IMG/VR virus record: IMGVR_UViG_2830687482_000006
Span: 11,083 to 75,082 of that record
Direction: 5' to 3' (one strand)
Length of the DNA: 64,000 bases
Origin: a virus
Lineage: Duplodnaviria; Caudoviricetes
Numbering within the stretch: the first letter of the stretch is position 1; every line of letters starts with the position of its first letter. Shown here piece by piece: positions 11,623-55,087 of the stretch. The position numbers and the translations under genes were made by a program. A model generated the notes under the pieces. It was not told where the DNA came from, searched no databases, and saw nothing but the letters and a program-made list of their open reading frames with translations.

Positions 11623-12453
11623 ATGGCTGACGTAAAAGACAACAAATTTGTAATCGGTAACGCTACGGTCATGCTTGCTCCGTTTAGTGCAGATGTGTTT
11701 GCCCTTAATCCCGATACCCATTCTGTTGGTATGGTTAAAGCGGTAACTATCACGCAAGAAGCTGACCAAATCATGCTGAAAAACGGTATTACCCAAAATA
11801 CTGTGGACACCCAGAAATCGAATGTCAACATGACTACGACATTTGAAGGTTATGAGTTTAGTGCCAAGAACTTGATGTATGCTTTGGGTCTTCAAGGTTC
11901 GGTAGTTAAGCGTCTGCGAGGTAAATTGACTGCTGCTGCTGCCGCCGCCGCGACCTCATTCTCGGTAGAATCTTATCCTATTCCGGGGGATGCCGCTTCT
12001 CTCATCGACGCAGTGGGAGACATCCCTAACGGAGCTACTTTGCTTTTGCAAAAAGCTGATCAACCAGATAACGTCTACCCCTGTAAAGCTGTAGCAGCCA
12101 CTACGGGAACAGGTCCCTACGTCGTGACTATTGATGCTCTTCCAGCAGGTGTTTCTTTTGCAGTTGGCGACACTGTCTGGGTGGTGAACGAGATTAACGC
12201 AGGTTCGACTGAGCAAGACCAGTATTTCTGTGCCAAGATTGTTGGTAAGCTTTCTTCGAACAATGAGCCGATTGTTGTCGTTATGCCTAAGGTTAAAGTG
12301 GCTAAAGGATTCAACCTGAGCTTTAGTGAGCAGGATCATTCGAACATGCCTTTCGAACTAACCCCCTTGGTCATGACTAAGACGGAAACAACTTCGACAC
12401 CGAAACTGGCCGGTTTCGAAAAAACTATTGCAAAGGCATACGTCGGCGGTTAA
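11623..12453 (+). CDS. Major tail tube protein with inserted accessory domain
   Basis: 276 aa before the tape measure; F-V-I-G-N-A-T-V start, LSFSEQDHSNMPFELT end. Confidence 0.75.
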   Translation: MADVKDNKFVIGNATVMLAPFSADVFALNPDTHSVGMVKAVTITQEADQIMLKNGITQNTVDTQKSNVNMTTTFEGYEFSAKNLMYALGLQGSVVKRLRGKLTAAAAAAATSFSVESYPIPGDAASLIDAVGDIPNGATLLLQKADQPDNVYPCKAVAATTGTGPYVVTIDALPAGVSFAVGDTVWVVNEINAGSTEQDQYFCAKIVGKLSSNNEPIVVVMPKVKVAKGFNLSFSEQDHSNMPFELTPLVMTKTETTSTPKLAGFEKTIAKAYVGG

Positions 12454-12479
12454 GGGGATTTATCCTTGCCAAACCTTTG

Positions 12480-12512
12480 AGGCCGCTGTATTTATGCAGC
12501 GGCCTTTTTTTT
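12480..12512 (+). terminator. Rho-independent terminator between major tail and tape measure genes
   Basis: AGGCCGCTGTA...TGCAGCGGCCT stem followed by T-run. Confidence 0.8.
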
Positions 12513-12525
12513 ATTCAGGTAAACA

Positions 12526-15500
12526 ATGACTGACGCTACGATTAAATCCACTGTCGGTATTCAAATGTCCCCGGAGGGCATGGCCTCCGCAGCAAAACAG
12601 CTCGATGGTATTCTTCAAAGAACTATTGCTAATCTAAACACAGCAGCTAAAACTGCGGAAAAAGCTATTGATAGTTCAGGAAAAGCTGGTCAAGTTGCCA
12701 CCAATCAAATAAATGGTCAATTAAAAGCTCTTGCTATTACATTAAGTCAAATTAAAACTCTTCAAAATACTCTTCAAAGTACGGGAGCTTCTGGAGGACT
12801 TAATGCAGCTAGACTTCTTGGGGATTTCTCTTCATCTGGAAGAGTTGGAAAGCAAGCTAGAGAATTAGCAGATTACACAAATAGTTTGCGTGGAGCCTCG
12901 TCAGCTATGACGACTCTAAAAGATCGCGCTCGTCAATTTGACGTCCAAGCTGGTAACCTTGCAAAAAATGGTCAGCTTCTTTCTAACAGCCAAATTATGA
13001 AGGCTGAGAAGATCGAAGCAACCGCGAAAGCCTATTCTAAAATAAGTAATGAAATTGGCAGCATTAGAGCAAGAGTAGCTTTACTCAGCACCGATGGTCA
13101 AAAAGCATTCAAGCCCCTTCTAGATAATCTGCAACAACTTGAAAAAGTGAATGCTAAAGCTTTTAGTAATCGGCGTCGTTCGGAGTACGGTCCAGAGTTA
13201 GCAACTACTAGAGATGCTGTGAGAGGTCTTCAAGAAAGGTTAATAGCAAGAGAAAAACTGGAAGCCAAAACTAGACTGAATGTTGAAGCTCTTCGTAAAG
13301 AGGGGATTGAACTTACCCGCCTAACGACTCTAGAGAGAGAAGCAGCACTTGCTGCTAAAGTGCGTTCAGCTAATAGTCGATTTAATAATGCACAGCTCAC
13401 CGGAACCATTATTTCTCGTAGGGATACCGATCAAGTTTCTAGATTCACTAGAGCTGCGGCGCTTGCAGCTACTACCCAAAATCAATTAGTTTCAGCCTTA
13501 AATAAACCCAATGTTTCTGCGGAGAGGCTGCAAACCCTTATCAATAGACACAAGACTTTACAAAGAGAGATTGCCGAGAGTATTGCTCAGCAAAATAGAA
13601 TGGGCGGCGATCCTAAGGGAGGATTCTTTGCCGGAATCAAAAGCAGTGCCAGCAATCTTCTGGGCGGGGGTGAAGGAGGTTTTGGTGCGGGTGCTCTGCT
13701 GGGAAGAGTGGGGGCCTACGCGGGAGCTGCTGCTGTAGTTTACGGTCTAATCAGTGCTCTTCAACAAGCTGTTTCATTCTCTATCCAGTTTGAAGATTCT
13801 TTAGCTCAACTACAAGCCATCTCTGGTTCGACCAATTATGAGATGCGTGATTTGAGTCAAAGCATTTTTGCTGTCGCCAAGAATAGTGCTGACAGTGTGT
13901 TAGAAATAACTAAATCAGCCACGGCTATCGCTCAAGCTGGCTATAAGGGAAAAGAGCTTTCTCAAGTTCTATCCGCTTCGGTTAATCTTTCGGCAGCAAG
14001 TGGCGCATCTCCTGCTGACTCCGTAGATATCCTTACCTCCGCGCTTGGTTCATTTCAATTGGCTGGCACTGAAGCCACCAGAGTTGCTGATGCTTTTGTT
14101 GCGGCACTCAACAATTCAAAACTGGGTGTGGCTCAGATTCAGGCCGGTATCCAGTATGTTGGTTCAACTGCTAATCAACTAGATATTTCTCTTAACGAGT
14201 TGGCGGGAACACTCGCAGTTATTGCAGACACTGGTATCAGGGGTACAACAGGACCGACCGGGCTTAGACAACTTCTTGTCGATTTAGTTGACCCGTCAGA
14301 AAAAGTAAAAGAAGAACTTAAGCAAGTAGGACTTACAGTAGCTGATATAGACGTAAAAGTCTTAGGATTTTCAGAGGTATTAAAAAGACTCAATAACGCA
14401 GGTTTTGATCCTTTTGCTGCGGGTATCGAAGTCCGAGCGGCCAACGTCTATAATGCTATTGCGGGTTCTACGGACGAAATATTAAAACAAACTCAAGCAA
14501 CTTTAGATCAGGGAGCAGCACAAGAAGCCGCTCAAGTTAGAACCGAAAGCGTTTCTGCAACTTGGCAGAAAATGATAAATACCGTTAGTGAATTAGCTGC
14601 AAGCATTGGTAATGATCTTGCTCCGGTCTTGAAATTTCTAATTGACCTTCTAGGTGTGGCAGCCACAGTAGGTTTGGGACTGATAAAAGTTTTATCTTCC
14701 ACTGTAAATTTTGTGGTAACTCTAGGTGGAACTTTTGATAAAACGGGGGTGTCTGGCGAGGCTCTTAATTCTAAATTGCAGGATTTAGGATACACAGCAG
14801 ATCAGGTAAATCTTAGTCATAAACAACTGACGGGGGGTTTAGAAGACGTCCAATCGGCTTTGAAAGCTAGTGAAGCGGAAACAGACTCTCTTAAAGCTCA
14901 GCAGCTTTCTTTAGCTCAAGAAACTGAAAAACTGATGGTTCGTCAAGATAGTTTAGTGGGAAAGAATGGAGATTTAACTGAAACCACTTCGGAGGTTAGG
15001 GTCGCTGTTGAAGAATTATCTCTACGTTTCCCGGGTCTCCGGGAGGAGTTTGATAAGACGGAAGGTGGAGTACAGGGACTACTTAAGGCTTTCGAAGCTT
15101 TGGATGAGCAAATTCAAAGAACTATGGTAAACGCTGCCCGGACTCAAAAAATTACCGCTGAAGCTGCCAGAGATGTGGCCTTAGAGAAATTAGAAGATGA
15201 TACTTCCTTCTACAAAAATTTAGGCCCAAATGGTTGGATATATCGGGATGTTGGGCTGAAAGAATATGGTGATCCTAGACGCCGAGGGGGTTTGGGTACT
15301 CCTCTTAATACCTCTCAACAAAAAGAAAGCTTTAATATTGAGAGTTTATTAAAAGCAGGAGACCCTGATAGTATCAGAAAAGCAAGAAACCTTATTCAAG
15401 ATAGTAAAGATACACTTATTAAAGCGATTTACGGGGAACTATTAGTAAAAATAAATACCTCAATAAGTGACTATGATAGTGCAATATTAAAATCCAAAGA

Positions 15501-17823
15501 AGCTGATGAGCTGCTTGGAGGCTATGCTGCTGCTCAATCTGAGGTAGGTAAAAAAATTAGAACTGCGAGGAGAGCTAATTCAACTGCCACCGTTACTGCT
15601 AGTTCTCAAGGTGCGGCGGGAGGTAGGTCTACTGCTCAAATTTTGCTCGAATTACAGCAAGAAGTTGGACAATTAAAAAGAAGACTGTCTGAAACAAAAG
15701 ACCCGGAAGAGATTAAGCTACTAGATAGAGCACTAATAGGAGCTAAAGCTGATATCGCTAAACTTAGTCGTAATCCAAATAATCCAAATAATCCAAATAA
15801 ACCAAAACGAGGGGAGCAACAATACACTGGACAAGCCCGTAAAGACGCTGAGTATTTAGAAAATTGGGTAAGAGCGCAAGGATTTAGAGTTGGCGAAAGA
15901 GGCTCTCAAGACCCAATACATAAAGGTGCGGGGCATAGGGAGTGGAGAGCTATAGATGTTAATTTAGCTTCAGGAGAAGGTGAAAGATTAGACCCTAAGC
16001 TTCGTTTGCGTATGAACGAACTTGCCAGAAGTATTCAAGCTAAAGGGGGCGTGGTGTTATGGAATGGAGAAAGGTATGATCCTAGTGGAGCCATAACTCG
16101 TATTAAAGGAAGTCGAAAAGCTAAGCATTACACCCACCTTCATGGAGAAGTTCCTTTAGGAGGCCTTTTTTCAGACGGTAAGCCTAATGATGCAGAATAT
16201 CAGTCCAGTGTTAATGAGGCCGAAAAAAAGGCACTTAAAGAACAAGAAGAAAGAATAAAAAAACAGTTAGCTGAGGCTGAAAGTCTAAGAAAGACTAGGG
16301 GTAAAATTGAGATTGAAGCTATAGAAGAAGAAATCTCAACGATTATGCGTAACGCAAAAACGGGTTCTTTTTCCCGAGAAGATTTGAATACTAAATTAGA
16401 AACAGCTATGGTTCTGAAATACATGGCTGTTATGAATCAATTTGATTTAGAGAACTCAAAGGAAGGCTTGGGACCTGAGGGCCTTAAAGAGTGGGAATTA
16501 AAAAGAAACGCTCAAATCAATCTTTTTGAAAAACAATCTTTAGATGAGTTTGCAAAACTTTATGGATATATCGCTGATTCTTTTTCAAAAAGCATGGAAT
16601 TATATGAGCAAGTAATCAAGAGTAATTTAGACAAAGCAGAGAGAGCAGCACAAGAAAAATTCAAGCGTTACGAGGAGAAAGAACGCTCTTACAACCTACC
16701 TAGTAATAGAGGCAGAGATTTCGGAGCTGGGGATGAATACCTCCTAGGAGAAAGAAGAAGACAAGCGGAAATACTTCGAGACCAAGAAATAGTAGCTGCT
16801 CAAGATGTCTCTAACGGCAGTTTGTATAATGCCAATGAGCGCAGAAAAGATAACTATAAAAACACCTTTGGTCGAGAATTCCAAGAATACAAACCCGGCT
16901 CCACAGAAATGGAAAAGTTTTTTTCCACAGCAGGGGAAGAAGAAGCAGCAGCATGGAAAGAAATTCAATCAGCTTTAGATGCCTATAATGTTACTTTGGC
17001 TGAGACCGCTGAACTACAACAACTTATAGATGAAAGAACAGGAAAAGTATCTGCAAGCCAGTTTACCTTTAAGCAAAGAATTGATGGGGCAGCAAAAGCT
17101 TGGCTTGATCAAAGTGGAGCTATGGACACTTGGGAGAAAACTGCTCAGAATAGCGTTGCACCGCTCTTGGACACTATAACTAATGGTCTTACGGACATGT
17201 TCAAAGGCCTCATCACTGGGCAACAAAGTCTTAAACAAAGCTTAAAGGCAATGCTATCTTCCATTGCTGATTTTGTTGCTCAGATGATCGCTAAAGCTCT
17301 GGCATTAGCTGCCGTCAAATGGTTCCTACAAATGATAGGTCTTGATGTTTCGGGCTTGGGAGGCGCAGGTGGCGGAGGCTTTGGGGGTGAAGGCGGAAGC
17401 GGAGCTGGTGGATTGTTGGGTCAAATCCTATCCCCCGGAGGTGGAATTGGTGGGGGACTATGGAGAGGTGGAGAAGTTAAAAGCTATGCCCGGGGAGGTC
17501 AGATTACCTCAGGTCTGGCAACCAGAGACAGCACCCTGATTCATGCTGCAAAAGGAGAGTATGTTCTTCGTAATTCAGCTGTTGATAGTATTGGTACAGA
17601 TATGCTCGATGCAATGAATAGTCGAGGCGCGGCAGCTATCGCTAGCGCCGGTAGTAATATAATTCCGCTTCCAACATCAGCTCCTGTTGAAACAAATGTT
17701 TATGTGATAGCTCCAGAAGAGAAACCTACTTTAGGGCCAAACGATGTTATTGCAATCATCAGTAAAGATGTGCTACAGGGAGGACAGACCAAGCGGTTAA
17801 TCAAAAAGGTGGCGAATGGCTGA
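12526..17823 (+). CDS. Tape measure protein with embedded M15-like peptidase domain
   Basis: 1765 aa, Ala/Leu/Gln-rich; TP901-type core (FEDSLAQLQAISGST...); lambda-like C-terminus (YARGG...GEYVL); HxxxxH...D and HxxHxH motifs near 15919-16143. Confidence 0.93.
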   Translation: MTDATIKSTVGIQMSPEGMASAAKQLDGILQRTIANLNTAAKTAEKAIDSSGKAGQVATNQINGQLKALAITLSQIKTLQNTLQSTGASGGLNAARLLGDFSSSGRVGKQARELADYTNSLRGASSAMTTLKDRARQFDVQAGNLAKNGQLLSNSQIMKAEKIEATAKAYSKISNEIGSIRARVALLSTDGQKAFKPLLDNLQQLEKVNAKAFSNRRRSEYGPELATTRDAVRGLQERLIAREKLEAKTRLNVEALRKEGIELTRLTTLEREAALAAKVRSANSRFNNAQLTGTIISRRDTDQVSRFTRAAALAATTQNQLVSALNKPNVSAERLQTLINRHKTLQREIAESIAQQNRMGGDPKGGFFAGIKSSASNLLGGGEGGFGAGALLGRVGAYAGAAAVVYGLISALQQAVSFSIQFEDSLAQLQAISGSTNYEMRDLSQSIFAVAKNSADSVLEITKSATAIAQAGYKGKELSQVLSASVNLSAASGASPADSVDILTSALGSFQLAGTEATRVADAFVAALNNSKLGVAQIQAGIQYVGSTANQLDISLNELAGTLAVIADTGIRGTTGPTGLRQLLVDLVDPSEKVKEELKQVGLTVADIDVKVLGFSEVLKRLNNAGFDPFAAGIEVRAANVYNAIAGSTDEILKQTQATLDQGAAQEAAQVRTESVSATWQKMINTVSELAASIGNDLAPVLKFLIDLLGVAATVGLGLIKVLSSTVNFVVTLGGTFDKTGVSGEALNSKLQDLGYTADQVNLSHKQLTGGLEDVQSALKASEAETDSLKAQQLSLAQETEKLMVRQDSLVGKNGDLTETTSEVRVAVEELSLRFPGLREEFDKTEGGVQGLLKAFEALDEQIQRTMVNAARTQKITAEAARDVALEKLEDDTSFYKNLGPNGWIYRDVGLKEYGDPRRRGGLGTPLNTSQQKESFNIESLLKAGDPDSIRKARNLIQDSKDTLIKAIYGELLVKINTSISDYDSAILKSKEADELLGGYAAAQSEVGKKIRTARRANSTATVTASSQGAAGGRSTAQILLELQQEVGQLKRRLSETKDPEEIKLLDRALIGAKADIAKLSRNPNNPNNPNKPKRGEQQYTGQARKDAEYLENWVRAQGFRVGERGSQDPIHKGAGHREWRAIDVNLASGEGERLDPKLRLRMNELARSIQAKGGVVLWNGERYDPSGAITRIKGSRKAKHYTHLHGEVPLGGLFSDGKPNDAEYQSSVNEAEKKALKEQEERIKKQLAEAESLRKTRGKIEIEAIEEEISTIMRNAKTGSFSREDLNTKLETAMVLKYMAVMNQFDLENSKEGLGPEGLKEWELKRNAQINLFEKQSLDEFAKLYGYIADSFSKSMELYEQVIKSNLDKAERAAQEKFKRYEEKERSYNLPSNRGRDFGAGDEYLLGERRRQAEILRDQEIVAAQDVSNGSLYNANERRKDNYKNTFGREFQEYKPGSTEMEKFFSTAGEEEAAAWKEIQSALDAYNVTLAETAELQQLIDERTGKVSASQFTFKQRIDGAAKAWLDQSGAMDTWEKTAQNSVAPLLDTITNGLTDMFKGLITGQQSLKQSLKAMLSSIADFVAQMIAKALALAAVKWFLQMIGLDVSGLGGAGGGGFGGEGGSGAGGLLGQILSPGGGIGGGLWRGGEVKSYARGGQITSGLATRDSTLIHAAKGEYVLRNSAVDSIGTDMLDAMNSRGAAAIASAGSNIIPLPTSAPVETNVYVIAPEEKPTLGPNDVIAIISKDVLQGGQTKRLIKKVANG

Positions 17824-48515: not shown

Positions 48516-48591
48516 TGGGGTGAAGTTCGGGTAACGATCCCGATACTCAGGCTTCACAAACCCGCGTGTATCCCTCAACACTTACAACACC
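48516..48591 (-). tRNA. tRNA-His(GUG), G-1:C73 type, atypical
   Basis: Anticodon arm CGGGT-TTGTGAA-GCCTG, encoded CCA; two U-U mismatches in acceptor; T-loop ATCGTTA. Confidence 0.8.
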
Positions 48592-48597
48592 ATAAAT

Positions 48598-48673
48598 TGG
48601 CACAGGCACAAAGACTCGAACTTTGCTCTTCGGTTTTGGAGACCGATACATCACCTCTAAATGCTTTACCTGC
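48598..48673 (-). tRNA. tRNA-Trp(CCA)
   Basis: TCGGT-CTCCAAA-ACCGA arm, TTCGAGT T-loop, CCA. Confidence 0.9.
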
Positions 48674-48759
48674 TCTACAGGTACCTCCTAAACCATCCAC
48701 TCTAGTCATTTTACACTCACAAGGAGGACCATGAGGGCATCGTGCTGGGTAGATATACT

Positions 48760-48834
48760 TGGTAGTTCCGGAGAGATTCGAACTCTCACCCCGGCCCTTA
48801 TGAGGGGCTGGCTCTACCATTGAGCTACGGAACT
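48760..48834 (-). tRNA. tRNA-CAU (Met elongator or Ile2)
   Basis: AGTTCCG/CGGAACT acceptor, CTCATAA loop, CCA. Confidence 0.9.
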
Positions 48835-48930
48835 ACAGATTTTCATAGACCTAATGAGCCAGTCAAAATGGGAGAACCAGAGCAGCGGGGAAATCCTCGA
48901 AGAGATTGGACATTCTAATTCTCCTAAAAA

Positions 48931-49021
48931 TGGTCTGGAAGGTCAGATTCGAACTGACAAGGGATATTACTCCACCCGCTTCCAAAGCGGGACCGCTACC
49001 TGATTACGGGCCTACTCCCAG
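48931..49021 (-). tRNA. tRNA-Pro(UGG) with long variable arm (91 nt)
   Basis: C1-G72, A73, CCCGC-TTTGGAA-GCGGG arm, 16-nt variable region, GTCAG-TTCGAAT-CTGAC T-arm. Confidence 0.85.
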
Positions 49022-49028
49022 AGAAATT

Positions 49029-49105
49029 TGGCTGACCATGTAGGACTCGAACCTACCATATGCAGATTAACAGTCTGCCCCGTCCACCTTGTTCGGCTAT
49101 GGCCA
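49029..49105 (-). tRNA. tRNA-Asn(GUU)
   Basis: GCAGA-CTGTTAA-TCTGC arm, G73, CCA. Confidence 0.88.
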
Positions 49106-49122
49106 TCATTGCTTGAAAATTT

Positions 49123-49197
49123 TGGTAGCGGGAGAAGGACTCGAACCTTCGACCTTCAACTTATGAGGCTGACGAGCTGCCACTGCTCTATCCCGCT
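49123..49197 (-). tRNA. tRNA-Met(CAU) on an initiator-like scaffold
   Basis: AGCGGGA..GAGCAG..AGCTCGTCAGCCTCATAAGTTGAAGGTCG; A1-U72 paired; no GGG/CCC in anticodon stem. Confidence 0.88.
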
Positions 49198-49308
49198 ACA
49201 CCTAGTTTGATGCTTAAACCCCACAGGGGGTTATGCCATCGTATCTGCCTCAGAGATACTCTATGATTTTTCACGTTTCTCTCCTTTCCAGATTGAGTTG
49301 ATAACTTT

Positions 49309-49337
49309 CCTTTAGAGGAAATTTTTATATGTGTCAA
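49309..49337 (-). promoter_or_regulatory. Putative promoter for the distal tRNA block
   Basis: TTGACA-N17-TAAAGG on the - strand at the end of the RNA ligase gene. Confidence 0.5.
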
Positions 49338-49939
49338 CTCTTCATTTCAGCCCACTTACCTTGTTCATCATAATCGAAAGTTTTTTTGAATGCTACACCA
49401 GATTTACGGTGAAACATAACAATACCTTCTGGGTCCATGAAGCCGGGGGCGTGATAGCTTCCATTTTCCTTTAACATGGTCATTATGCCTTGAGCCGCAC
49501 CATCCGGATTATTCAGATACTCATCTTGAATAAAAGTGTGAACAACCTCACAACATTGAGGACGATCTGGATTATCTTTCCAACGCAAGCTGTTGAAAAG
49601 TGCAAATCTTTTTTCTCCGCCAGTCAGCCCATAACCTCGCTTGATTCCAGAACCATACCACTCTCCGAAGTGTCGGCCTTCCCCTAGTTTGAAAAGCTCA
49701 CTAACATTATGTGAAACAAATCGAGCAAAACCCATGTTATCCTTATCTAAGGATAACCAGCGGTTGCGCGAACCAGCAAATAGATAATAGCCCTCATGCT
49801 CTGTCAGAGCAGCTCCGGGTTCTGATTGATAATCAGCCTTAGGTCGCCAAGCAACCTGCGCATTAGTTCCATCAAGTTTTTCAGTTATCGTCCAACCCTG
49901 ACTAAAACGAGTCAAACTAGAAAAGCGTTCAAAGTCCAT
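49334..49939 (-). CDS. RNA ligase (Rnl2-like nucleotidyltransferase domain)
   Basis: TEKLDGTN motif I, GSRNRW, FGEWYG, FALF, EGIV, FK motifs; no OB domain. Confidence 0.88.
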   Translation of the reverse strand: MDFERFSSLTRFSQGWTITEKLDGTNAQVAWRPKADYQSEPGAALTEHEGYYLFAGSRNRWLSLDKDNMGFARFVSHNVSELFKLGEGRHFGEWYGSGIKRGYGLTGGEKRFALFNSLRWKDNPDRPQCCEVVHTFIQDEYLNNPDGAAQGIMTMLKENGSYHAPGFMDPEGIVMFHRKSGVAFKKTFDYDEQGKWAEMKS

Positions 49940-50160
49940 TGATAATCTCCATCAAGTCTATTGGGGTGTAATTGATTTGTTCCATGCTCACACAACGGTA
50001 GCGAGGGTCTGAATAATTTCCATAGAAGATTTCTCCTACTTTTGACTGTATCAATTTATCATGAGTATGCCCATGCACATTTAATTTCCATCTATTCATG
50101 GATTGAGGGTGAATAGGAATATGAGACATGATCAACCCATGCTCCGGCTTCACGAGCCAT
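49929..50160 (-). pseudogene. Internally deleted metallophosphoesterase (C-terminal half only)
   Basis: SHIPIH...NVHGHTH...CVSMEQINYTP is present but the DxH/GD/GNHD half is absent. The RBS-ATG at 50160 is out of frame with it. Confidence 0.65.
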
Positions 50161-50176
50161 ATGTATCTCCTAAAAC

Positions 50177-50253
50177 TGGTTCCCCGCTCAGGCCTCGAAC
50201 CTGTTTCTTGGGATTCAAAGTCCCAGATTTTAACCAAATTAAACTATCGGGGA
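50177..50253 (-). tRNA. tRNA-Gln(UUG)
   Basis: TGGGA-CTTTGAA-TCCCA arm, CCA. Confidence 0.88.
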
Positions 50254-50254
50254 A

Positions 50255-50328
50255 TGGAGCGGAATGCGGGACTCGAACCCGCTTCTTTAGCTTGGAAGGC
50301 TAAGGCACAACCCATATACCAAATCCGC
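50255..50328 (-). tRNA. tRNA-Gly(UCC)
   Basis: GCGGATT acceptor, TTAGC-CTTCCAA-GCTAA, U73, CCA. Confidence 0.92.
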
Positions 50329-50333
50329 AATGA

Positions 50334-50402
50334 TGGAGCATAACGGAGTTGAACCGTTCCTAGCTCCTTGCAGGGGAACCGTCGGCACCCCCTCGGATGA
50401 CC
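50334..50402 (-). pseudogene. Degenerate tRNA-Cys-like remnant
   Basis: Intact T-arm AACGG-TTCAACT-CCGTT and TCCA end, CTGCAA loop; acceptor shortened and D-arm unpaired. Confidence 0.55.
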
Positions 50403-50618
50403 TTAAACTTGTATGTAATCAAATCTTCCTTTTACATTCTCGTTAAAGAAAATTCCAACTGAATTTGCTATGATCATAGATTCATAAATTGTTTTTGGAA
50501 CCGCATCATATTCATAAACAAGTCCTGAGTTGAACTCCACTTCCAAAGTCTCTGTAGACTCATCATATCCCACAGCAGCAATATTTGAACTTGAGACCGA
50601 TATTCTATCCATTTTCAT
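50403..50618 (-). CDS. KTSC domain protein
   Basis: VSSSNIAAVGYD...LEVEF.SG..YEY..VP..IY..M..A.SVG.FF...VK; RBS AGGAGA before ATG 50618. Confidence 0.92.
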   Translation of the reverse strand: MKMDRISVSSSNIAAVGYDESTETLEVEFNSGLVYEYDAVPKTIYESMIIANSVGIFFNENVKGRFDYIQV

Positions 50619-50627
50619 TCTCCTAAA

Positions 50628-50702
50628 TGGTGCCGGATTGAGGACTCGAACCCCATTCTTTCGCTTACAAGGCGACTGCATCCCCACTATTGCTCATCCG
50701 GC
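50628..50702 (-). tRNA. tRNA-Thr(UGU)
   Basis: GCCGGAT/ATCCGGC acceptor, CTTGTAA loop. Confidence 0.92.
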
Positions 50703-50704
50703 GC

Positions 50705-50780
50705 TGGTGTAGAAGGTAGGACTCGAACCCACATCTGCGAGGCTTCAACTCGCCGCTAAGACCTCATCAGCTACTTCTAC
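50705..50780 (-). tRNA. tRNA-Phe(GAA)
   Basis: GTAGAAG/CTTCTAC acceptor, GCGAG-TTGAAGC-CTCGC. Confidence 0.9.
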
Positions 50781-50781
50781 A

Positions 50782-50862
50782 TGGACCCCCAGACAGGATT
50801 CGAACCTGCATTTTCATCCAGTTATCCGTTTCTTGGTTCGTAGCCAAGGGGAATACTGAGGG
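50782..50862 (-). tRNA. D-armless tRNA-Arg(ACG)-like RNA with enlarged variable region
   Basis: CCCTCAG-TATTCCC-CTTGG-CTACGAA-CCAAG-AAACGGATAACTGGATGAAAAT-GCAGG-TTCGAAT-CCTGT-CTGGGGG-T-CCA. Confidence 0.8.
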
Positions 50863-50863
50863 A

Positions 50864-50938
50864 TGGTAGTCCGTGAGAATTATGCTATCCCGACCTTCCC
50901 CTTGTAAGGGGGACGCTCTACTTCTGAGCTAACGGACC
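50864..50938 (-). tRNA. tRNA-Val(UAC) with non-canonical T-loop
   Basis: TCCCC-CTTACAA-GGGGA; T-loop AGCATAA. Confidence 0.88.
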
Positions 50939-50940
50939 AT

Positions 50941-51016
50941 TGGTTGTTCCAGTAGGACTCGAACCTACGACACAGCGATTATCAGTCGCTTGCTCTACCA
51001 ACTGAGCTATGGAACA
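50941..51016 (-). tRNA. tRNA-Ile(GAU)
   Basis: Canonical cloverleaf, CTGATAA loop. Confidence 0.95.
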
Positions 51017-51156
51017 TCATTCTTAACGTCAAAATATCCTTTCAACCAAATCCATTTATTTTTCCCTCGTTTGAAAGGACAATCTGAATGAGAAAGACCA
51101 TTATATGCCGCTGATCTTCCATTGTTTTCTACTGAACCTTCATTCCAATGTAGCAC
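51007..51156 (-). CDS. Rmf/CrpP-like small protein (49 aa, below track cutoff)
   Basis: RBS AAGGAG, GTG start: MLHWNEGSVENNGRSAAYNGLSHSDCPFKRGKNKWIWLKGYFDVKNDVP; G..A...G.....CP(Y/F)......WL.G(W/Y) pattern of RMF. Confidence 0.6.
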   Translation of the reverse strand: MLHWNEGSVENNGRSAAYNGLSHSDCPFKRGKNKWIWLKGYFDVKNDVP

Positions 51157-51169
51157 ATCATATCTCCTT

Positions 51170-51244
51170 TGGTCGGCCCGAGGGGAATCGAACCCCCATT
51201 TCCTGATTGAAAGTCAAGCGTCTTAGCCATTAGACGACGGGTCG
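51170..51244 (-). tRNA. tRNA-Glu(UUC)
   Basis: CTTGA-CTTTCAA-TCAGG, CCA. Confidence 0.92.
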
Positions 51245-51286
51245 TCTACCAGCTTAACTCAATTCTCAATGTAGGAGTTGGGTTTA

Positions 51287-51389
51287 GACTAGTAGAGAGG
51301 TTCAGCCGAAGCGAATCTCTCGTTCACGCACGACAGCGAACCCACCTTGGCGGGTCGCTGTCGTTCCAATAAAGGTTGCGTTACTAGTC
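51287..51389 (-). ncRNA. Unassigned structured ncRNA (multi-stem junction)
   Basis: Closing stem GACTAGTA/TACTAGTC, 35-nt hairpin ACGACAGCGACCCGCC-AA-GGTGGGTTCGCTGTCGT, UUCG-capped hairpin; no ORF. Confidence 0.6.
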
Positions 51390-51401
51390 ATAATGATCAA
51401 C

Positions 51402-51430
51402 CCATAGCAAGGTAAATGACCTATGTCAAG
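51402..51430 (-). promoter_or_regulatory. Alphaproteobacterial RpoD-type promoter upstream of the ncRNA
   Basis: CTTGAC-N17-CTATGG on the - strand. Confidence 0.6.
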
Positions 51431-51488
51431 TGGAGCGACGAACAGGACTCGAACCTGCATGTTCTTGAGCCATTTCCGCCACCGTCGC
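51431..51488 (-). ncRNA. 58-nt anticodon-less tRNA-like RNA
   Basis: GCGACGG-TG-GCGGAAATGGCTCAAGAACAT-GCAGG-TTCGAGT-CCTGT-TCGTCGC-T-CCA: full acceptor and T-arm, D-loop GG, no anticodon arm. Confidence 0.7.
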
Positions 51489-51500
51489 TAAAGAAAGAAG

Positions 51501-51577
51501 TGGTGAACGGCCCTAGACTTGAACTCGGAACCCCCGACTTAAAAGGACGGTGCTCTAACCTATTGAGCTAGCCGTTC
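51501..51577 (-). tRNA. tRNA-Lys(UUU)
   Basis: GAACGGC/GCCGTTC acceptor, CCGTC-CTTTTAA-GTCGG (U30-U40 mismatch). Confidence 0.9.
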
Positions 51578-51889
51578 ACGAATAAAAGCACCTTTGGTGC
51601 TGAAAAAACCATAACGATGCTTGGCTTGCTCTGCCCTAGCAAACGCACCGAGCAGAGTTTCTCTTGAATATGTTTCGGGACTCCATTGACCTTCTAGACC
51701 ATAACAGGAACAATGTCCACCTGAAACATAATAGTATGTGTCTCCATTTCTATACAGAACATCAGCACTACCATCGCAACCATAAGCTTCATGATCATAC
51801 TGAGCATATAGAACCTCATCTGGTTCTGGGTCGTTCATCGCAAATTCTCTTTGAACATCTCCCCAATTACTGAACAGATCATAATACAT
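51560..51889 (-). CDS. Conserved-looking phage hypothetical protein with HCSCYG motif
   Basis: RBS AGGAG; VLYAQY...G.A.V...GGHCSCYGLEGQW.PE. Confidence 0.6.
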   Translation of the reverse strand: MYYDLFSNWGDVQREFAMNDPEPDEVLYAQYDHEAYGCDGSADVLYRNGDTYYYVSGGHCSCYGLEGQWSPETYSRETLLGAFARAEQAKHRYGFFSTKGAFIRERLAQ

Positions 51890-51906
51890 ACTATTCTCCT
51901 TAAAAA

Positions 51907-51984
51907 TGGTGCGCCTAGTAGGACTCGAACCTACAACCTACCGATTAGAAGTCGGCAACTCTATTCCAGTTGAGCTATAGGCGC
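51907..51984 (-). tRNA. tRNA-Arg(UCU)
   Basis: Canonical cloverleaf, CTTCTAA loop. Confidence 0.95.
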
Positions 51985-51991
51985 AAAAACT

Positions 51992-52232
51992 ATGGCCCGT
52001 TCTGTTCCACGGTGGGCCAAGCCGGTGTCAAGAGCAGTTAAGCTGCGAGACGAAGTGCCATTTCTGGCTGGTTATCATTGACAGTTATCAATGTTGATCT
52101 TTTAAGGTAATCACACCTACAACCTCACACTAGCTTATCCCGTCAGTCGATACCCTTTCACCCCCATTATGGTGGAGGTGGGCGCACTCGAAGCGCCGTC
52201 CTGTCCGTATTCACTAGTGGTCAGCGATTGTT
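51992..52232 (-). ncRNA. ssrA: Circularly permuted (two-piece) tmRNA; tag (A)VNDNQPEMALRLAA*
   Basis: Acceptor piece ends CACCTCC-A-CCA (52170), 4-nt spacer TAAT, coding piece starts GGGGGTG (52165) with G3-U70. Tag ORF at 52082-52038; terminal GGCCCACCGTGGAACAGAACGGGCC hairpin. The 5' boundary is approximate. Confidence 0.92.
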
Positions 52233-52352
52233 CCTCAAAACTTCCTGCATAAACTTCTTAAAGTCGGCATCACTTCCGGTTCCTTTGCCTAAATTAGCAG
52301 CGGTGCAAACAAATTGCACATTTCCTTCTCCGCTGTCAACAGATAGTTTCAC
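52221..52352 (-). pseudogene. HNH/His-Me endonuclease remnant
   Basis: VKLSVDSGEGNVQFVCTAANLGK...: S.D...GNVQFV...N..K motif with the RIDSSKGY-type segment missing. Confidence 0.45.
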
Positions 52353-52911
52353 TCACCATATCCGTGAAGTTTAGATCAACCCCTAAAATCCACTTATGTG
52401 AAGGATACCTTGGAACCCAACGAGAAAACCTATGAACACTGCTAGCCAGCGCCAGTGGTGATTCTGATCTTATCAGGCGAAAAACCTTATCATCATGATC
52501 TTCCAAATAGCCCTTGCTTCTTTCCAAGTATTTTCCATTAAAAGAAATTTGACAAAGACCATAATCGAATCTCTGAGTTATATATTGAATACTCCAATTC
52601 ACAAAAATTAGTTGGATTGGGGGAAGTCCTTCAACATCCATATTAGTCACTAATATAATTTCTCTCATAGATTCAGGATACCAAGCATCGGTATCATTTT
52701 GCTCAGGTTCTTTTCCCCCTAATAATTTGTTAAGGGCTGTAGCTTCACTTTCTGAGCCACAAGCTACAAAGAAATCTAAATCTTTTACATCTAGGCCATG
52801 ATCTAAATCTCTTAAAGACCCTCCAGCAAGAACTACTTTAGAATGAATAGTTTGAAACTTAAGTAGAAGATCGACCCATTCTTTTGGAATGTCTTTTTCG
52901 GTAATCATCAC
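52336..52911 (-). CDS. tRNA nucleotidyltransferase/poly(A) polymerase head-domain protein
   Basis: LAGGSLRD...KDLDFF and RFDYGLCQI motifs; adjacent to the tRNA array. Confidence 0.8.
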   Translation of the reverse strand: MMITEKDIPKEWVDLLLKFQTIHSKVVLAGGSLRDLDHGLDVKDLDFFVACGSESEATALNKLLGGKEPEQNDTDAWYPESMREIILVTNMDVEGLPPIQLIFVNWSIQYITQRFDYGLCQISFNGKYLERSKGYLEDHDDKVFRLIRSESPLALASSVHRFSRWVPRYPSHKWILGVDLNFTDMVSETIC

Positions 52912-54014: not shown

Positions 54015-54194
54015 TTAACGACTCCCTCAATTGTTTCAGCCAACTATTACGATCAAAAACTCTTTTGATTTCTTTCTCATTTTCATCTGTGAAAAATACA
54101 ATATCTTTCTGAATTGAGATGATTTTATCTTCCAGCCACTCCGATGTATCTATTTTGGGAGCAACTCCCCAAAATTTGAAAGGCTCTCAGGCAT
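54007..54194 (-). pseudogene. Small ORF split by a -1 shift at C CCA AAA TAG
   Basis: 14-aa ORF from ATG 54194; the -1 frame continues 48 codons to overlap the ligase ATG. Confidence 0.35.
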
Positions 54195-55087
54195 TAGGTT
54201 TCCTTTCGAATATATGGGATAAGCATATGTTTGTTCTTATGAAAATTTTCTACAAAATTTGGGAGATTTCGAAACATATGAAGAACATTATCATAATTCT
54301 CCCAAGCAAATTCTCGAAAATGTCCGGAGGTTATGGAGGTGCAAACTTTCTCCAAAGCAATTTGAGCACTATGAAGATAGTGTGGAGCAAATCTATTAGG
54401 TATCTGGTGGCGTTCCAGAGCCAGAACAGCCGCTTCTTCGTAAACTCCTGCTAGTTGCAAGTGTTTTGGGCAAGTCTCAAACATTTTTCGAGAAGTCAGC
54501 ACCTCATTACCTTGCGTTTTATAACTTTCGTAGGCTGGTTGTCCGTAAAGGGCTACTGTTAAGTGGATAGAATCATGATCATAAACCATATAATTATCTT
54601 CGGGATTGAAAAACTCATCCTTACTACGATTAAGATTGGGATGCTCATAATACAAGGTTTCTTTTTGACGCCTCTTAAAGAAATCCATATGTGCTGGCTC
54701 AATTATTGCTCCAGCCTTGCGCATCAAGTGAATGTCATTCATAGTTTTTCGGAAATGAGGAGAGTTTTTCTTGAATCTGTGAGTCATTTTCAACATATAC
54801 AAAATGTTGAGATTTGGAATCCATGCTTTCAAATCTTGATCGAAACGTGTTTGGGAATGAGATAGTATTAGTCTAGCTAATTCCAGTCCAAGTCCTGAAT
54901 CCCATATTAACTCGCAATCAAAAATTTGATTGCCTTTTTTAGCAAAAACATGATCTTTATCAACTACTGTGGGGTTGACTCCGAGATAGTCTTGGAAGTC
55001 AGGAAGAGTAGCAAGGACGTCAATGTCCTTGCTCTCCCGGCCCAAAATATGTTGAATTGAGTGTGAGCCTAAAATGATCATTAGCAA
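54194..55087 (-). CDS. Putative Pol-beta-fold nucleotidyltransferase with helical C-terminal domain
   Basis: N-terminal LGS...KDIDV motif; YMLKMTH, HDSIH, YEEAAVLALER, LEKVCTSITSGHFR. Confidence 0.55.
   Translation of the reverse strand: MLMIILGSHSIQHILGRESKDIDVLATLPDFQDYLGVNPTVVDKDHVFAKKGNQIFDCELIWDSGLGLELARLILSHSQTRFDQDLKAWIPNLNILYMLKMTHRFKKNSPHFRKTMNDIHLMRKAGAIIEPAHMDFFKRRQKETLYYEHPNLNRSKDEFFNPEDNYMVYDHDSIHLTVALYGQPAYESYKTQGNEVLTSRKMFETCPKHLQLAGVYEEAAVLALERHQIPNRFAPHYLHSAQIALEKVCTSITSGHFREFAWENYDNVLHMFRNLPNFVENFHKNKHMLIPYIRKET

Follow-up and report, generated by a model that had tools for sequence, protein, structure and literature searches.

A putative translation-maintenance island with tRNA genes, a two-piece tmRNA, and RNA-repair genes in a Seuss-like siphophage

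An island at positions 48516 to 52911 of the window, by which we mean the whole 64,000-nucleotide stretch of viral DNA analyzed here (bases 11083 to 75082 of the 75,082-bp contig C559), carries a two-piece transfer-messenger RNA (tmRNA) gene, an array of tRNA genes, and a set of small protein-coding genes. Every feature of the island is on the minus strand. The island sits between the DNA ligase/nucleotidyltransferase (NTase) genes and an SNF2 helicase gene, is co-oriented with the surrounding replication genes, and starts with the tmRNA, which is followed by the tRNA array. The parts that a first-pass annotation had named from the sequence alone (tRNAs, tmRNA, RNA ligase, NTase, KTSC protein, Rmf-like peptide, and phosphoesterase remnant) are all present there. 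With moderate confidence, we interpret the island as a lineage-specific and fluid accessory module for translation maintenance in a Seuss-like siphophage of ~80 kb, with tRNA supply, ribosome rescue, and RNA repair in several members. This interpretation is based on the identity of the parts, on synteny, on the structural conservation of the tmRNA and of a D-arm-less tRNA-Arg, and on recurrence, because tmRNA/tRNA arrays with RtcB, Rnl, and phosphoesterases recur in sister phages, while the ligases are absent from the three tRNA-poor relatives that were searched.

The contig is the longest of a metagenome-assembled genome (MAG) of 4.35 Mb and 580 contigs, and it encodes a terminase, a portal protein, a major capsid protein, a DNA polymerase, a ribonucleotide reductase, and RIIA. 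The major capsid protein is 50% identical to the capsid protein of Caulobacter phage Seuss (85 kb) and is also similar to those of Achromobacter phage JWF, Pseudoalteromonas phage KB12-38, and Xylophilus phage Lumi. We consider that the contig is probably a nearly complete Seuss-like siphophage genome of ~80 kb that was mis-binned in a cyanobacterial MAG. The mis-binning is probable because the contig is the longest of the MAG, because the GC contents do not match (42.3% in the phage contig versus 48.8% in the MAG), and because the tmRNA genes are of different types. The MAG's own tmRNA (contig C37; L004:1503-1892) is encoded in one piece and has a tag of the cyanobacterial type (ANNIVPFARKTVLATA), unlike the phage tmRNA, which is permuted and of the alphaproteobacterial type. 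The host is probably an alphaproteobacterium, as suggested by the type of the tmRNA, the nearest protein relatives, and a PF13505 outer-membrane beta-barrel gene in the sister islands. No match to the island was found in a megablast search against 50,697 phage records.

Relatives of the phage could be reached only by starting from the DNA ligase and the SNF2 helicase and by looking up exact proteins, and the resulting clade comprises the window and six sister genomes: L017, L018 (the same phage as L099), L098, L100, L102, and L105/L106. A permuted tmRNA (68 to 100 bits) and a tRNA array were identified in all six sisters, and the co-occurrence of the gene set in related phages, which the first-pass annotation had proposed to check, was thus found at the level of the module. 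In the three sisters in which both flanks are on the contig (L017, L018, and L098), the array runs from the DNA ligase/NTase genes to the SNF2 helicase gene, and the L102 and L105 contigs show the NTase-tmRNA end. The NTase gene immediately precedes the tmRNA in six clade genomes, the window among them, and carries a frameshift in L018/L099. In the seventh, L100, the island is rearranged and no NTase gene was detected. An SNF2 homologue spread over several frames lies inside the island of L100 (L100:5597-6962), and its state may be due to rearrangement with pseudogenization or to an assembly error.

The number of tRNAs in the sisters ranges from 2 (L098) to about 22 (L017), and the local gene order is partly conserved (e.g., Met-Asn-Pro-Trp-His and Thr/Phe-Ala). 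L017 has an intact metallophosphoesterase of 177 amino acids between tRNA-Gln and tRNA-Met and an RtcB gene (427.8 bits) between tRNA-His and SNF2. In L100, two intact phosphoesterases followed by the same Rnl as in the window (67% identity) are found between tRNA-Gln and tRNA-Met, which is also the location of the Rnl in the window, together with a KTSC gene after tRNA-Ile and an RtcB gene after tRNA-Trp. L102 has RtcB after the tRNA array. There are also seven more distant relatives with 0 or 1 tRNA, namely, L023, L026, and L030 (92% to 100% complete) and phages Seuss, JWF, KB12-38, and Lumi; L023, L026, and L030 were searched for RtcB and Rnl, and neither was found.

Other genes were seen in the sister islands as well. 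Three L017 open reading frames (ORFs) located between tRNA genes (positions 12360 to 12896, 14367 to 14771, and 16269 to 16634) are GIY-YIG-like or HNH-like by motif and had no Pfam hit. The PF13505 gene lies right after the tmRNA in L017 (L017:13165-13653) and has homologues in L018, L098, L100, L102, and L105. Unlike the sister islands, the window island contains no GIY-YIG/HNH-like ORF and no PF13505 gene.

The tmRNA gene of the window (positions 51985 to 52262) was detected by ARAGORN (tmRNA*) and by the Rfam model RF04321 (tmRNA_permuted), which matched positions 52038 to 52232 over the full model (1 to 213) with a score of 100.7 bits against a cut-off of 47. The two-piece nature that had been proposed for it is borne out by this match and by the permuted gene order visible in the alignment, in which an acceptor piece ending with CACCTCC-A-CCA is followed by a 4-nt spacer and by a coding piece starting with GGGGGTG. 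The pairing of GGGGGTG with CACCTCC gives G3-U70, followed by A73 and CCA, and the identity elements of alanyl-tRNA synthetase (AlaRS) are therefore present. The L017 and L018 orthologues show a compensatory change in the acceptor stem; in L017, pair 2-71 is altered on both sides and G3-U70 is kept. The coding piece specifies the tag (A)VNDNQPEMALRLAA, whose end is a hydrophobic degron, followed by a stop, and tags resembling ANDN...(L/I)AA are found in the three phages aligned (the window, L017, and L018). A search for SmpB (PF01668) found the protein on MAG contig C49 only and none on the phage contig, and the phage tmRNA therefore depends on SmpB of the host. The lack of a phage SmpB means that the tmRNA must compete for the host protein, and the resume codon is GUC (Val) in the window only, versus GCA in L017 and L018. 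Both observations would fit a tmRNA that serves as a takeover or decoy device, either titrating host SmpB or tagging proteins with a degron specified by the phage, and both of these ideas have been raised in the published discussion of phage tmRNAs (PMC9004378; PMC4131195). We consider such a device very improbable. A full coding piece, the conserved ANDN...(L/I)AA tag, and the AlaRS elements are retained in all of the relatives examined, and these are the needs of a working rescue tmRNA, beyond the needs of an SmpB decoy.

The gene at positions 49334 to 49939 encodes an ATP-dependent RNA ligase of the Rnl2/Rnl5 type (PF09414; phrog_548) that has 201 amino acids and consists of the adenylyltransferase domain only. 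With 26.6 bits, it falls just short of the PF09414 cut-off of 27; precomputed annotations list PF09414 for the ligase and for nearly all of its homologues, and the match to phrog_548 is at 1e-21. Motif I reads EKLDGTN, and residues K21, D23, G24, N26, E93, E171, G172, K185, and K186 are invariant in 50 homologues, with the residues of motifs III to V being assigned by reading of the alignment. The AlphaFold2 (AF2) model (pLDDT, the predicted local distance difference test score, 93.6) consists of a single adenylyltransferase domain, and the top fold matches are the nick-sealing ligases Naegleria Rnl5 (NgrRnl), Trypanosoma brucei REL1, and T4 Rnl2; about 200 columns of NgrRnl and T4 Rnl2, which are 335 to 340 amino acids long, align with the model. 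A profile search of PDB sequences gave T4 Rnl2 as the best, weak match (E value, 0.025), and a phmmer search of the same sequences had no hits. An Rnl2-like RNA ligase, as originally called, is thus supported by the Rnl2/Rnl5-type fold and the invariant ligase motifs, with no accessory domain. We also considered whether the 201-residue protein is truncated, which was ruled out, as the whole family of more than 2,000 homologues is 180 to 230 amino acids long.

Next to the ligase gene, positions 49929 to 50165 (within the listed ORF 49929 to 50237) encode a C-terminal stump of ~75 residues of the 177-residue phosphoesterase, and this sequence covers only positions 135 to 197 of the 245 positions of the phrog_547 profile, in agreement with the earlier description of it as a remnant. 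Its only remaining metal motif is HGHTH, and the N-terminal metal-binding motifs are gone. The stump is 58% identical to residues 96 to 176 of the intact L017 enzyme (L017:17519-18052) and 56% identical to the L100 copy; the homology to the intact enzyme begins right beside tRNA-Gln and covers only the last 80 or so residues. Judged from these alignments, the stump and the ligase represent a cassette of phosphoesterase plus ligase in damaged form. Scans of the island ORFs with Pfam, PHROG, and NCBIfam profiles detected no kinase domain.

In the tRNA array, ARAGORN identified 12 tRNAs, all of which were also matched by Rfam: tRNA-Trp(CCA) (positions 48598 to 48673), two tRNAs with a CAU anticodon that are listed as Met (48760 to 48834 and 49123 to 49197, the latter with 68.3 bits in Rfam and being either elongator Met or Ile2), tRNA-Asn(GUU) (49029 to 49105), tRNA-Gln(UUG) (50177 to 50253), tRNA-Gly(UCC) (50255 to 50328), tRNA-Thr(UGU) (50628 to 50702), tRNA-Phe(GAA) (50705 to 50780), tRNA-Ile(GAU) (50941 to 51016; 71.7 bits), tRNA-Glu(UUC) (51170 to 51244), tRNA-Lys(UUU) (51501 to 51577), and tRNA-Arg(UCU) (51907 to 51984; 67.2 bits). 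Three weaker Rfam matches, at 50867 to 50938 (47.3 bits), 50785 to 50862 (29.5 bits), and 48936 to 49018 (30.7 bits), add a tRNA-Val(UAC) with the noncanonical T loop AGCAUAA (50864 to 50938), a D-arm-less tRNA-Arg(ACG)-like RNA (50782 to 50862), and a 91-nt tRNA-Pro(UGG) (48931 to 49021). Relaxed ARAGORN settings further add tRNA-His(GUG), reported at 48516 to 48590 and delimited here as 48516 to 48591, at the start coordinate of the island. The first-pass estimate of about 15 tRNAs is therefore close to the 16 tRNA-like genes obtained with these three approaches (12 canonical and 4 divergent ones, namely, Val, His, Pro, and Arg-ACG), to which 2 decayed genes (Cys and Ala) can be added. The 3' CCA is encoded by all 17 of the tRNA or tRNA-like genes that were checked. 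The tRNA set of the contig has no gene for Leu, Ser, Tyr, or Asp, and the Ala and Cys genes are decayed.

The decayed genes had been regarded as two of three noncanonical structured RNAs. Comparison with the sisters resolves these two as former tRNA genes, and only the third stands as a structured RNA of another kind, a 126-nt three-way-junction RNA. The 58-nt anticodon-less tRNA-like gene at 51431 to 51488 is an orthologue of the L017 tRNA-Cys(GCA) (L017:14914-14990) in which a 13-nt deletion takes out the anticodon stem-loop, with U73 and CCA being retained. Its identification as a tRNA-Gly was considered and ruled out, as it aligns to the L017 tRNA-Cys minus the anticodon arm and its U73 fits Cys. 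The decayed tRNA-Ala(UGC) at 50334 to 50403, recognized by alignment with the L017 and L018 tRNA-Ala genes and by relaxed ARAGORN, keeps the anticodon loop, the T arm, and the 3' acceptor strand but has lost its 5' part where the KTSC gene ends.

Canonical orthologues of the Pro, His, and Val tRNAs of the window are found at the same positions in sister phages. A37 is present in the tRNA-Pro of the window, whose D loop is enlarged and in which an insertion of 10 nt forms a variable arm; this tRNA aligns with the canonical tRNA-Pro(UGG) located after Asn in L017 and L018, and C1-G72 and A73 are retained. The tRNA-Val is orthologous to the L017 tRNA-Val, whose T loop is canonical. Opposite C73, the tRNA-His encodes a G-1; its T loop is odd, its acceptor stem contains a tandem U-U mismatch, and its acceptor strands, including the U-U pairs, are the same in L017 (19099 to 19172) and L018 (15000 to 15073). 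The combination of the tandem U4-U69/U5-U68 mismatch, the encoded G-1, and C73 is thus common to the tRNA-His genes of three phages.

Three further small proteins are encoded among the tRNA genes. The KTSC-domain protein (positions 50403 to 50618, within the listed ORF 50403 to 50687) matches PF13619 over the full domain (positions 1 to 58 of 58) with 80.5 bits against a cut-off of 25, as expected from its first-pass name. The likely start is the ATG at 50618, located after a GGAGA motif, and the longer ORF runs into tRNA-Thr. A KTSC gene is present at the same relative place in L100, and the KTSC gene of the window is inherited at its place in the island. A 49-residue peptide with an Rmf/CrpP fold is encoded at 51007 to 51156, with a GTG start codon and AGGAG 7 nt upstream. 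It had been called RMF-like; its assignment to the Rmf/CrpP superfamily holds by a marginal pass of the NCBIfam model NF041886 (28.6 bits against a cut-off of 28; E value, 7.5e-7), but both RMF-specific models failed (PF04957, 14.6 bits against 27.9; NCBIfam PRK14563, 17.7 bits against 40). The third is a 109-residue protein of a phage-only family (51560 to 51889; phrog_8792, 1e-22) whose homologues are mostly in jumbo phages and which falls in the protein atlas into viral hypothetical clusters only; it is absent from the sister islands.

Several of these observations weigh against the interpretation of the island as a translation-maintenance module. No RNA ligase was seen beside the tmRNA and tRNAs of L018, L098, and L105 (the last being a short contig). 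The window ligase lacks an extra substrate-handling domain such as the C-terminal domain of Rnl2 or the N-terminal oligonucleotide-binding (OB) domain of Rnl5, and the truncation of the healing enzyme may make the repair of breaks with 2',3'-cyclic-phosphate and 5'-OH ends impossible in this phage. Outside the clade, the five IMG/VR loci with the nearest ligase homologues (L008 to L012) have 0 tRNAs within 10 kb and none of the other island genes, which argues against a general linkage of the ligase with tRNAs there. KTSC is also found in the tRNA-less phage Seuss, and among the relatives examined, the Rmf/CrpP peptide and the 109-residue protein occur only in the window island. Codon usage, on the other side, fits tRNA supply: AGA, ATA, and GGA are enriched in the phage ORFs relative to the MAG (18.4 versus 4.7, 14.2 versus 4.0, and 24.5 versus 11.7 per 1,000 codons, respectively) and correspond to Arg-UCU, to an Ile2 that may be one of the two CAU tRNAs, and to Gly-UCC. 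The MAG used for this comparison, however, has a one-piece cyanobacterial-type tmRNA and a GC content of 48.8% and is probably not the host.

The same data could be read in terms of codon supply with hitchhiking genes. The array would then match an AT-richer phage to a GC-richer host, and a recombination hot spot would collect unrelated, noncooperating genes, i.e., the ligase, KTSC, Rmf/CrpP, and 109-residue protein genes and, in the sisters, the HNH/GIY-YIG-like ORFs and the outer-membrane beta-barrel protein gene. About half of the anticodons of the array are of the U34 type, for the A-ending codons that the phage overuses; the content of the islands varies widely, both in tRNA number and in the HNH-/GIY-YIG-like ORFs and outer-membrane protein gene of L017; the nearest ligase homologues outside the clade are unlinked to tRNAs; and decay has affected the window island, with a truncated phosphoesterase, broken genes for tRNA-Cys and tRNA-Ala, and structural divergence in several tRNAs, the decayed Cys, Ala, and phosphoesterase genes pointing to weak purifying selection on single parts. 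However, two unrelated classes of ligase (Rnl and RtcB) are found with phosphoesterases in or at the arrays of four of the seven clade genomes, and none of the three searched tRNA-poor relatives has a ligase, which exceeds what random accretion would give. The tmRNA is present in all seven clade genomes, even in L098 with just 2 tRNAs. We therefore regard codon supply with hitchhikers as rather unlikely to be the whole explanation.

If the island does maintain translation, the co-oriented array would probably be co-transcribed, and the transcript would be cut into tRNAs and the two tmRNA pieces by the RNase P and 3' processing enzymes of the host. A scan for promoter and terminator consensus sequences gave nothing clearly over the shuffled background to bound a transcription unit. 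Among sequencing runs, a search listed no RNA run containing this stretch; one freshwater metagenome run had a 0.12 share of its words and is not counted here as a sign of habitat or expression. The phage tRNAs would supply codons heavily used by the AT-richer phage and could replace host tRNAs lost in infection, the ligase would reseal nicked tRNA, and the tmRNA, charged by the host AlaRS and acting with host SmpB, would free stalled ribosomes. Genes for RNA repair and small RNA- or ribosome-associated proteins would have been recruited into the array, namely, those for the ligase, KTSC, and Rmf/CrpP in the window and for RtcB and intact phosphoesterases in the sisters. Expression, processing, the substrates of all of the enzymes, and any anti-defense role are put forward here as predictions, and the coordinated counter to abortive infection suggested in the first-pass annotation is an inference that reaches further than these data. 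The description of the island as self-contained has to be given up, since it has no SmpB and no intact healing enzyme and ~6 amino acids are without an intact tRNA gene.

The gene directly upstream of the tmRNA (positions 52336 to 52911) overlaps the upstream DNA ligase gene by 4 nt and encodes a stand-alone NTase of 191 residues (phrog_1614, 2e-15). Its family has at least 658 representatives of about 190 amino acids, with invariant residues G29, G30, R33, D34, D43, D45, D115, and R160 and a GGxxRD...DxD motif of the class II type. PF01743 is matched weakly by 36 of 70 family members and with 12.8 bits, against a cut-off of 23, by the window protein. The best Foldseek matches of the AF2 model (pLDDT, 91) are CCA-adding enzymes (3h39, 5hc9, and 1miv) and the Escherichia coli poly(A) polymerase (PAP; 3aql), with E values of 1e-5 to 4e-7 and template modeling (TM) scores of 0.53 to 0.63. 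A phmmer search against PDB sequences had no hits, and a peptide-pattern scan of IMG/VR found nothing. The protein thus shares the head-neck fold and the GGxxRD...DxD motif with class II CCA-adding enzymes and bacterial PAP I, but class II CCA-adding enzymes have about 400 residues with body and tail, whereas the window NTase corresponds to head and neck only (191 residues, against 350 to 460 in the matched structures). In the templating region, as placed by our own reading of the alignment, only D137 is near-invariant, and the EDxxR spacing is not conserved. Of the CCA-type assignment made in the first-pass annotation, the fold (head/neck and motif) is therefore retained, while the tRNA-binding body and tail, EDxxR, and the PF01743 cut-off are missed, and the function is putative.

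Such an enzyme could well act outside tRNA or tmRNA function, as a Gad2-like anti-defense protein or as an RNA-tailing enzyme of the poly(A) polymerase type whose position beside the tmRNA is historical. We tentatively treat this as quite possible. The family carries the precomputed Pfam label PF26128 (Gad2), Gad2 being an anti-Gabija protein of 400 residues with a predicted NTase domain (Yirmiya et al., bioRxiv 10.1101/2023.05.01.538930). Gad2 and the window NTase are alike in being phage-borne NTase-domain proteins but differ in that Gad2 has about 400 residues and comes from Bacillus phages, and the two were compared by label and not by direct alignment. A local Pfam scan at an E value of up to 10 did not return PF26128 for the NTase, and the Gad2 link comes from the precomputed labels only. 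In L023, which is 99% complete and has no tRNA, the NTase gene is directly upstream of SNF2, which means that this gene was in place before the array was inserted next to it. Mini-NTases are also frequent in T7-like and other small phages without tRNAs. The poly(A) polymerase among the best folds, the missing body, tail, and EDxxR, and the CCA already encoded by the island tRNAs fit a role elsewhere, as does the frameshift that splits the NTase gene in both assemblies of one phage (L018:11676-12301; L099:6164-6735), where the adjacent tmRNA and tRNAs look intact. The best PDB folds, however, are CCA-adding enzymes with the class II type of motif, and six of the seven clade genomes have retained the NTase beside the tmRNA at just 39% to 53% protein identity.

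A protein of 297 residues (DUF7275/DUF7277) encoded just upstream of the DNA ligase/NTase genes (positions 54194 to 55087, minus strand) is kept in the window, L017, L098, L102, and L105. It has an N-terminal GS...DIDV motif, and its Atlas model shows a weak likeness to NTases of the AbiEii/DUF2204 type (TM score, about 0.4). This protein may represent a second NTase adjacent to the island. No hits to PDB sequences were obtained with phmmer. The "nucleotidyltransferase" that CcrSC has beside its RNA ligase was also considered and is unrelated to both NTase candidates of the window.

Two of the unusual RNAs look, from their sequence comparisons, like more than products of decay. The first is the 81-nt Arg(ACG) element, which in its L017 orthologue has four pairs changed on both sides, with 100% of the cells pairing. 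A covariance model built on it (R1) has five members in four genomes, with ACG or UCU anticodons: the window element (50782 to 50862), its L017 orthologue (L017:15618-15704), and further members with a UCU anticodon, one each in L017 (14162 to 14249), L018 (13346 to 13433), and L100 (4958 to 5046). All five share a 7-bp acceptor stem and a short covarying helix around the anticodon hairpin, and in the family the anticodon arm is followed by a conserved D-loop-like segment (AAYUGGA..UGAAAAU), the T arm, U73, and CCA. ARAGORN misses every member. A literature search for phage tRNAs without a D arm found nothing. The second is the 126-nt three-way-junction RNA (~51279 to 51404; minimum free energy, -58 kcal/mol; fold z-score, -5.8), which is located between the positions of tRNA-Cys and tRNA-Glu in both the window and L017. 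The L017 homologue (about 15190 to 15320) is 78% identical, occupies the same slot, and, when folded alone, forms the same three-way junction with arm sequences that differ. No match to the 126-nt RNA was found in Rfam, an exact-pattern scan of IMG/VR found L017 only, and RNAalifold fixed no consensus structure from the two sequences. It is reminiscent of the stable RNAs other than tRNAs that the tRNA cluster of T4 encodes.

A more far-reaching proposal would be that the odd tRNAs (the D-arm-less Arg family, the type-II-like Pro with A37, the U-U His, and the T-loop-altered Val and His) are re-engineered, being either translation competent or decoys that evade host nucleases targeting tRNA, and that they belong to an integrated toolkit against abortive infection in which the tmRNA, the mini NTase, and the ligase or RtcB also take part. 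We consider this quite unlikely. If true, the tRNA-Arg family would represent a new tRNA architecture that arose by natural rearrangement in a bacterial virus, a D-loop-like segment having shifted to the 3' side of the anticodon arm. The island offers two concrete new targets at the RNA level, the conserved D-arm-less tRNA-Arg and the 126-nt RNA.

Phage translation-support modules and two-piece tmRNAs are already known, and the island of the window adds a partly decayed example. A mid-sized siphophage lineage has built, at one slot, a tRNA/tmRNA/RNA-repair toolkit that has so far been discussed mainly for jumbo phages, and this toolkit is gained, swapped (Rnl versus RtcB), and lost on short evolutionary scales. 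The seven related genomes and their tRNA-less relatives are a natural series for weighing codon supply against defense evasion and for the role of the mini class II NTase.

For T4, Pnk and Rnl1 heal and seal tRNA-Lys cleaved by PrrC. The window shares with T4 a phage ATP-dependent RNA ligase near phage tRNA genes but, unlike T4, has no kinase/phosphatase, and its sole candidate healing enzyme is truncated. Unlike T4 Rnl1, the window ligase is a minimal adenylyltransferase domain of the nick-sealing Rnl2/Rnl5 type and has no known PrrC-like target.

For jumbo phages, Iyer et al. 2021 (PMC7824862) describe tRNA sets accompanied by RNA ligases, phosphoesterases, Pol-beta NTases, CCA-adding enzymes, and KTSC. 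Sets of tRNAs with a tmRNA are known from mycobacteriophages of cluster C, for instance Bxz1 (PMC4131195). The sets have in common many tRNAs with ATP-grasp-type and RtcB ligases, phosphoesterases, Pol-beta-type NTases, KTSC, and, in some, a tmRNA, and the proposed role is likewise to keep translation running against RNase effectors. The set of the window differs in belonging to an ~80-kb siphophage, in forming one co-oriented island of 4.4 kb in a fixed genomic slot, in having a permuted tmRNA of the alphaproteobacterial type, and in being partly decayed; unlike in the jumbo phage sets, no polynucleotide kinase or RlaP-family NTase was identified in the window, where no dedicated search for them was run. 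Among phage tmRNAs, 53 two-piece forms have been counted in 133 unique structures (PMC9004378). The window shares with OM43 phage Melnitz (PMC9004378) a permuted ssrA of the alphaproteobacterial type in a lytic phage. Unlike in Melnitz, there is no match to the glutamine riboswitch in the window, the spacer between the tmRNA pieces is 4 nt, and the tmRNA heads a tRNA array and follows directly after a mini NTase gene in six of the seven related genomes.

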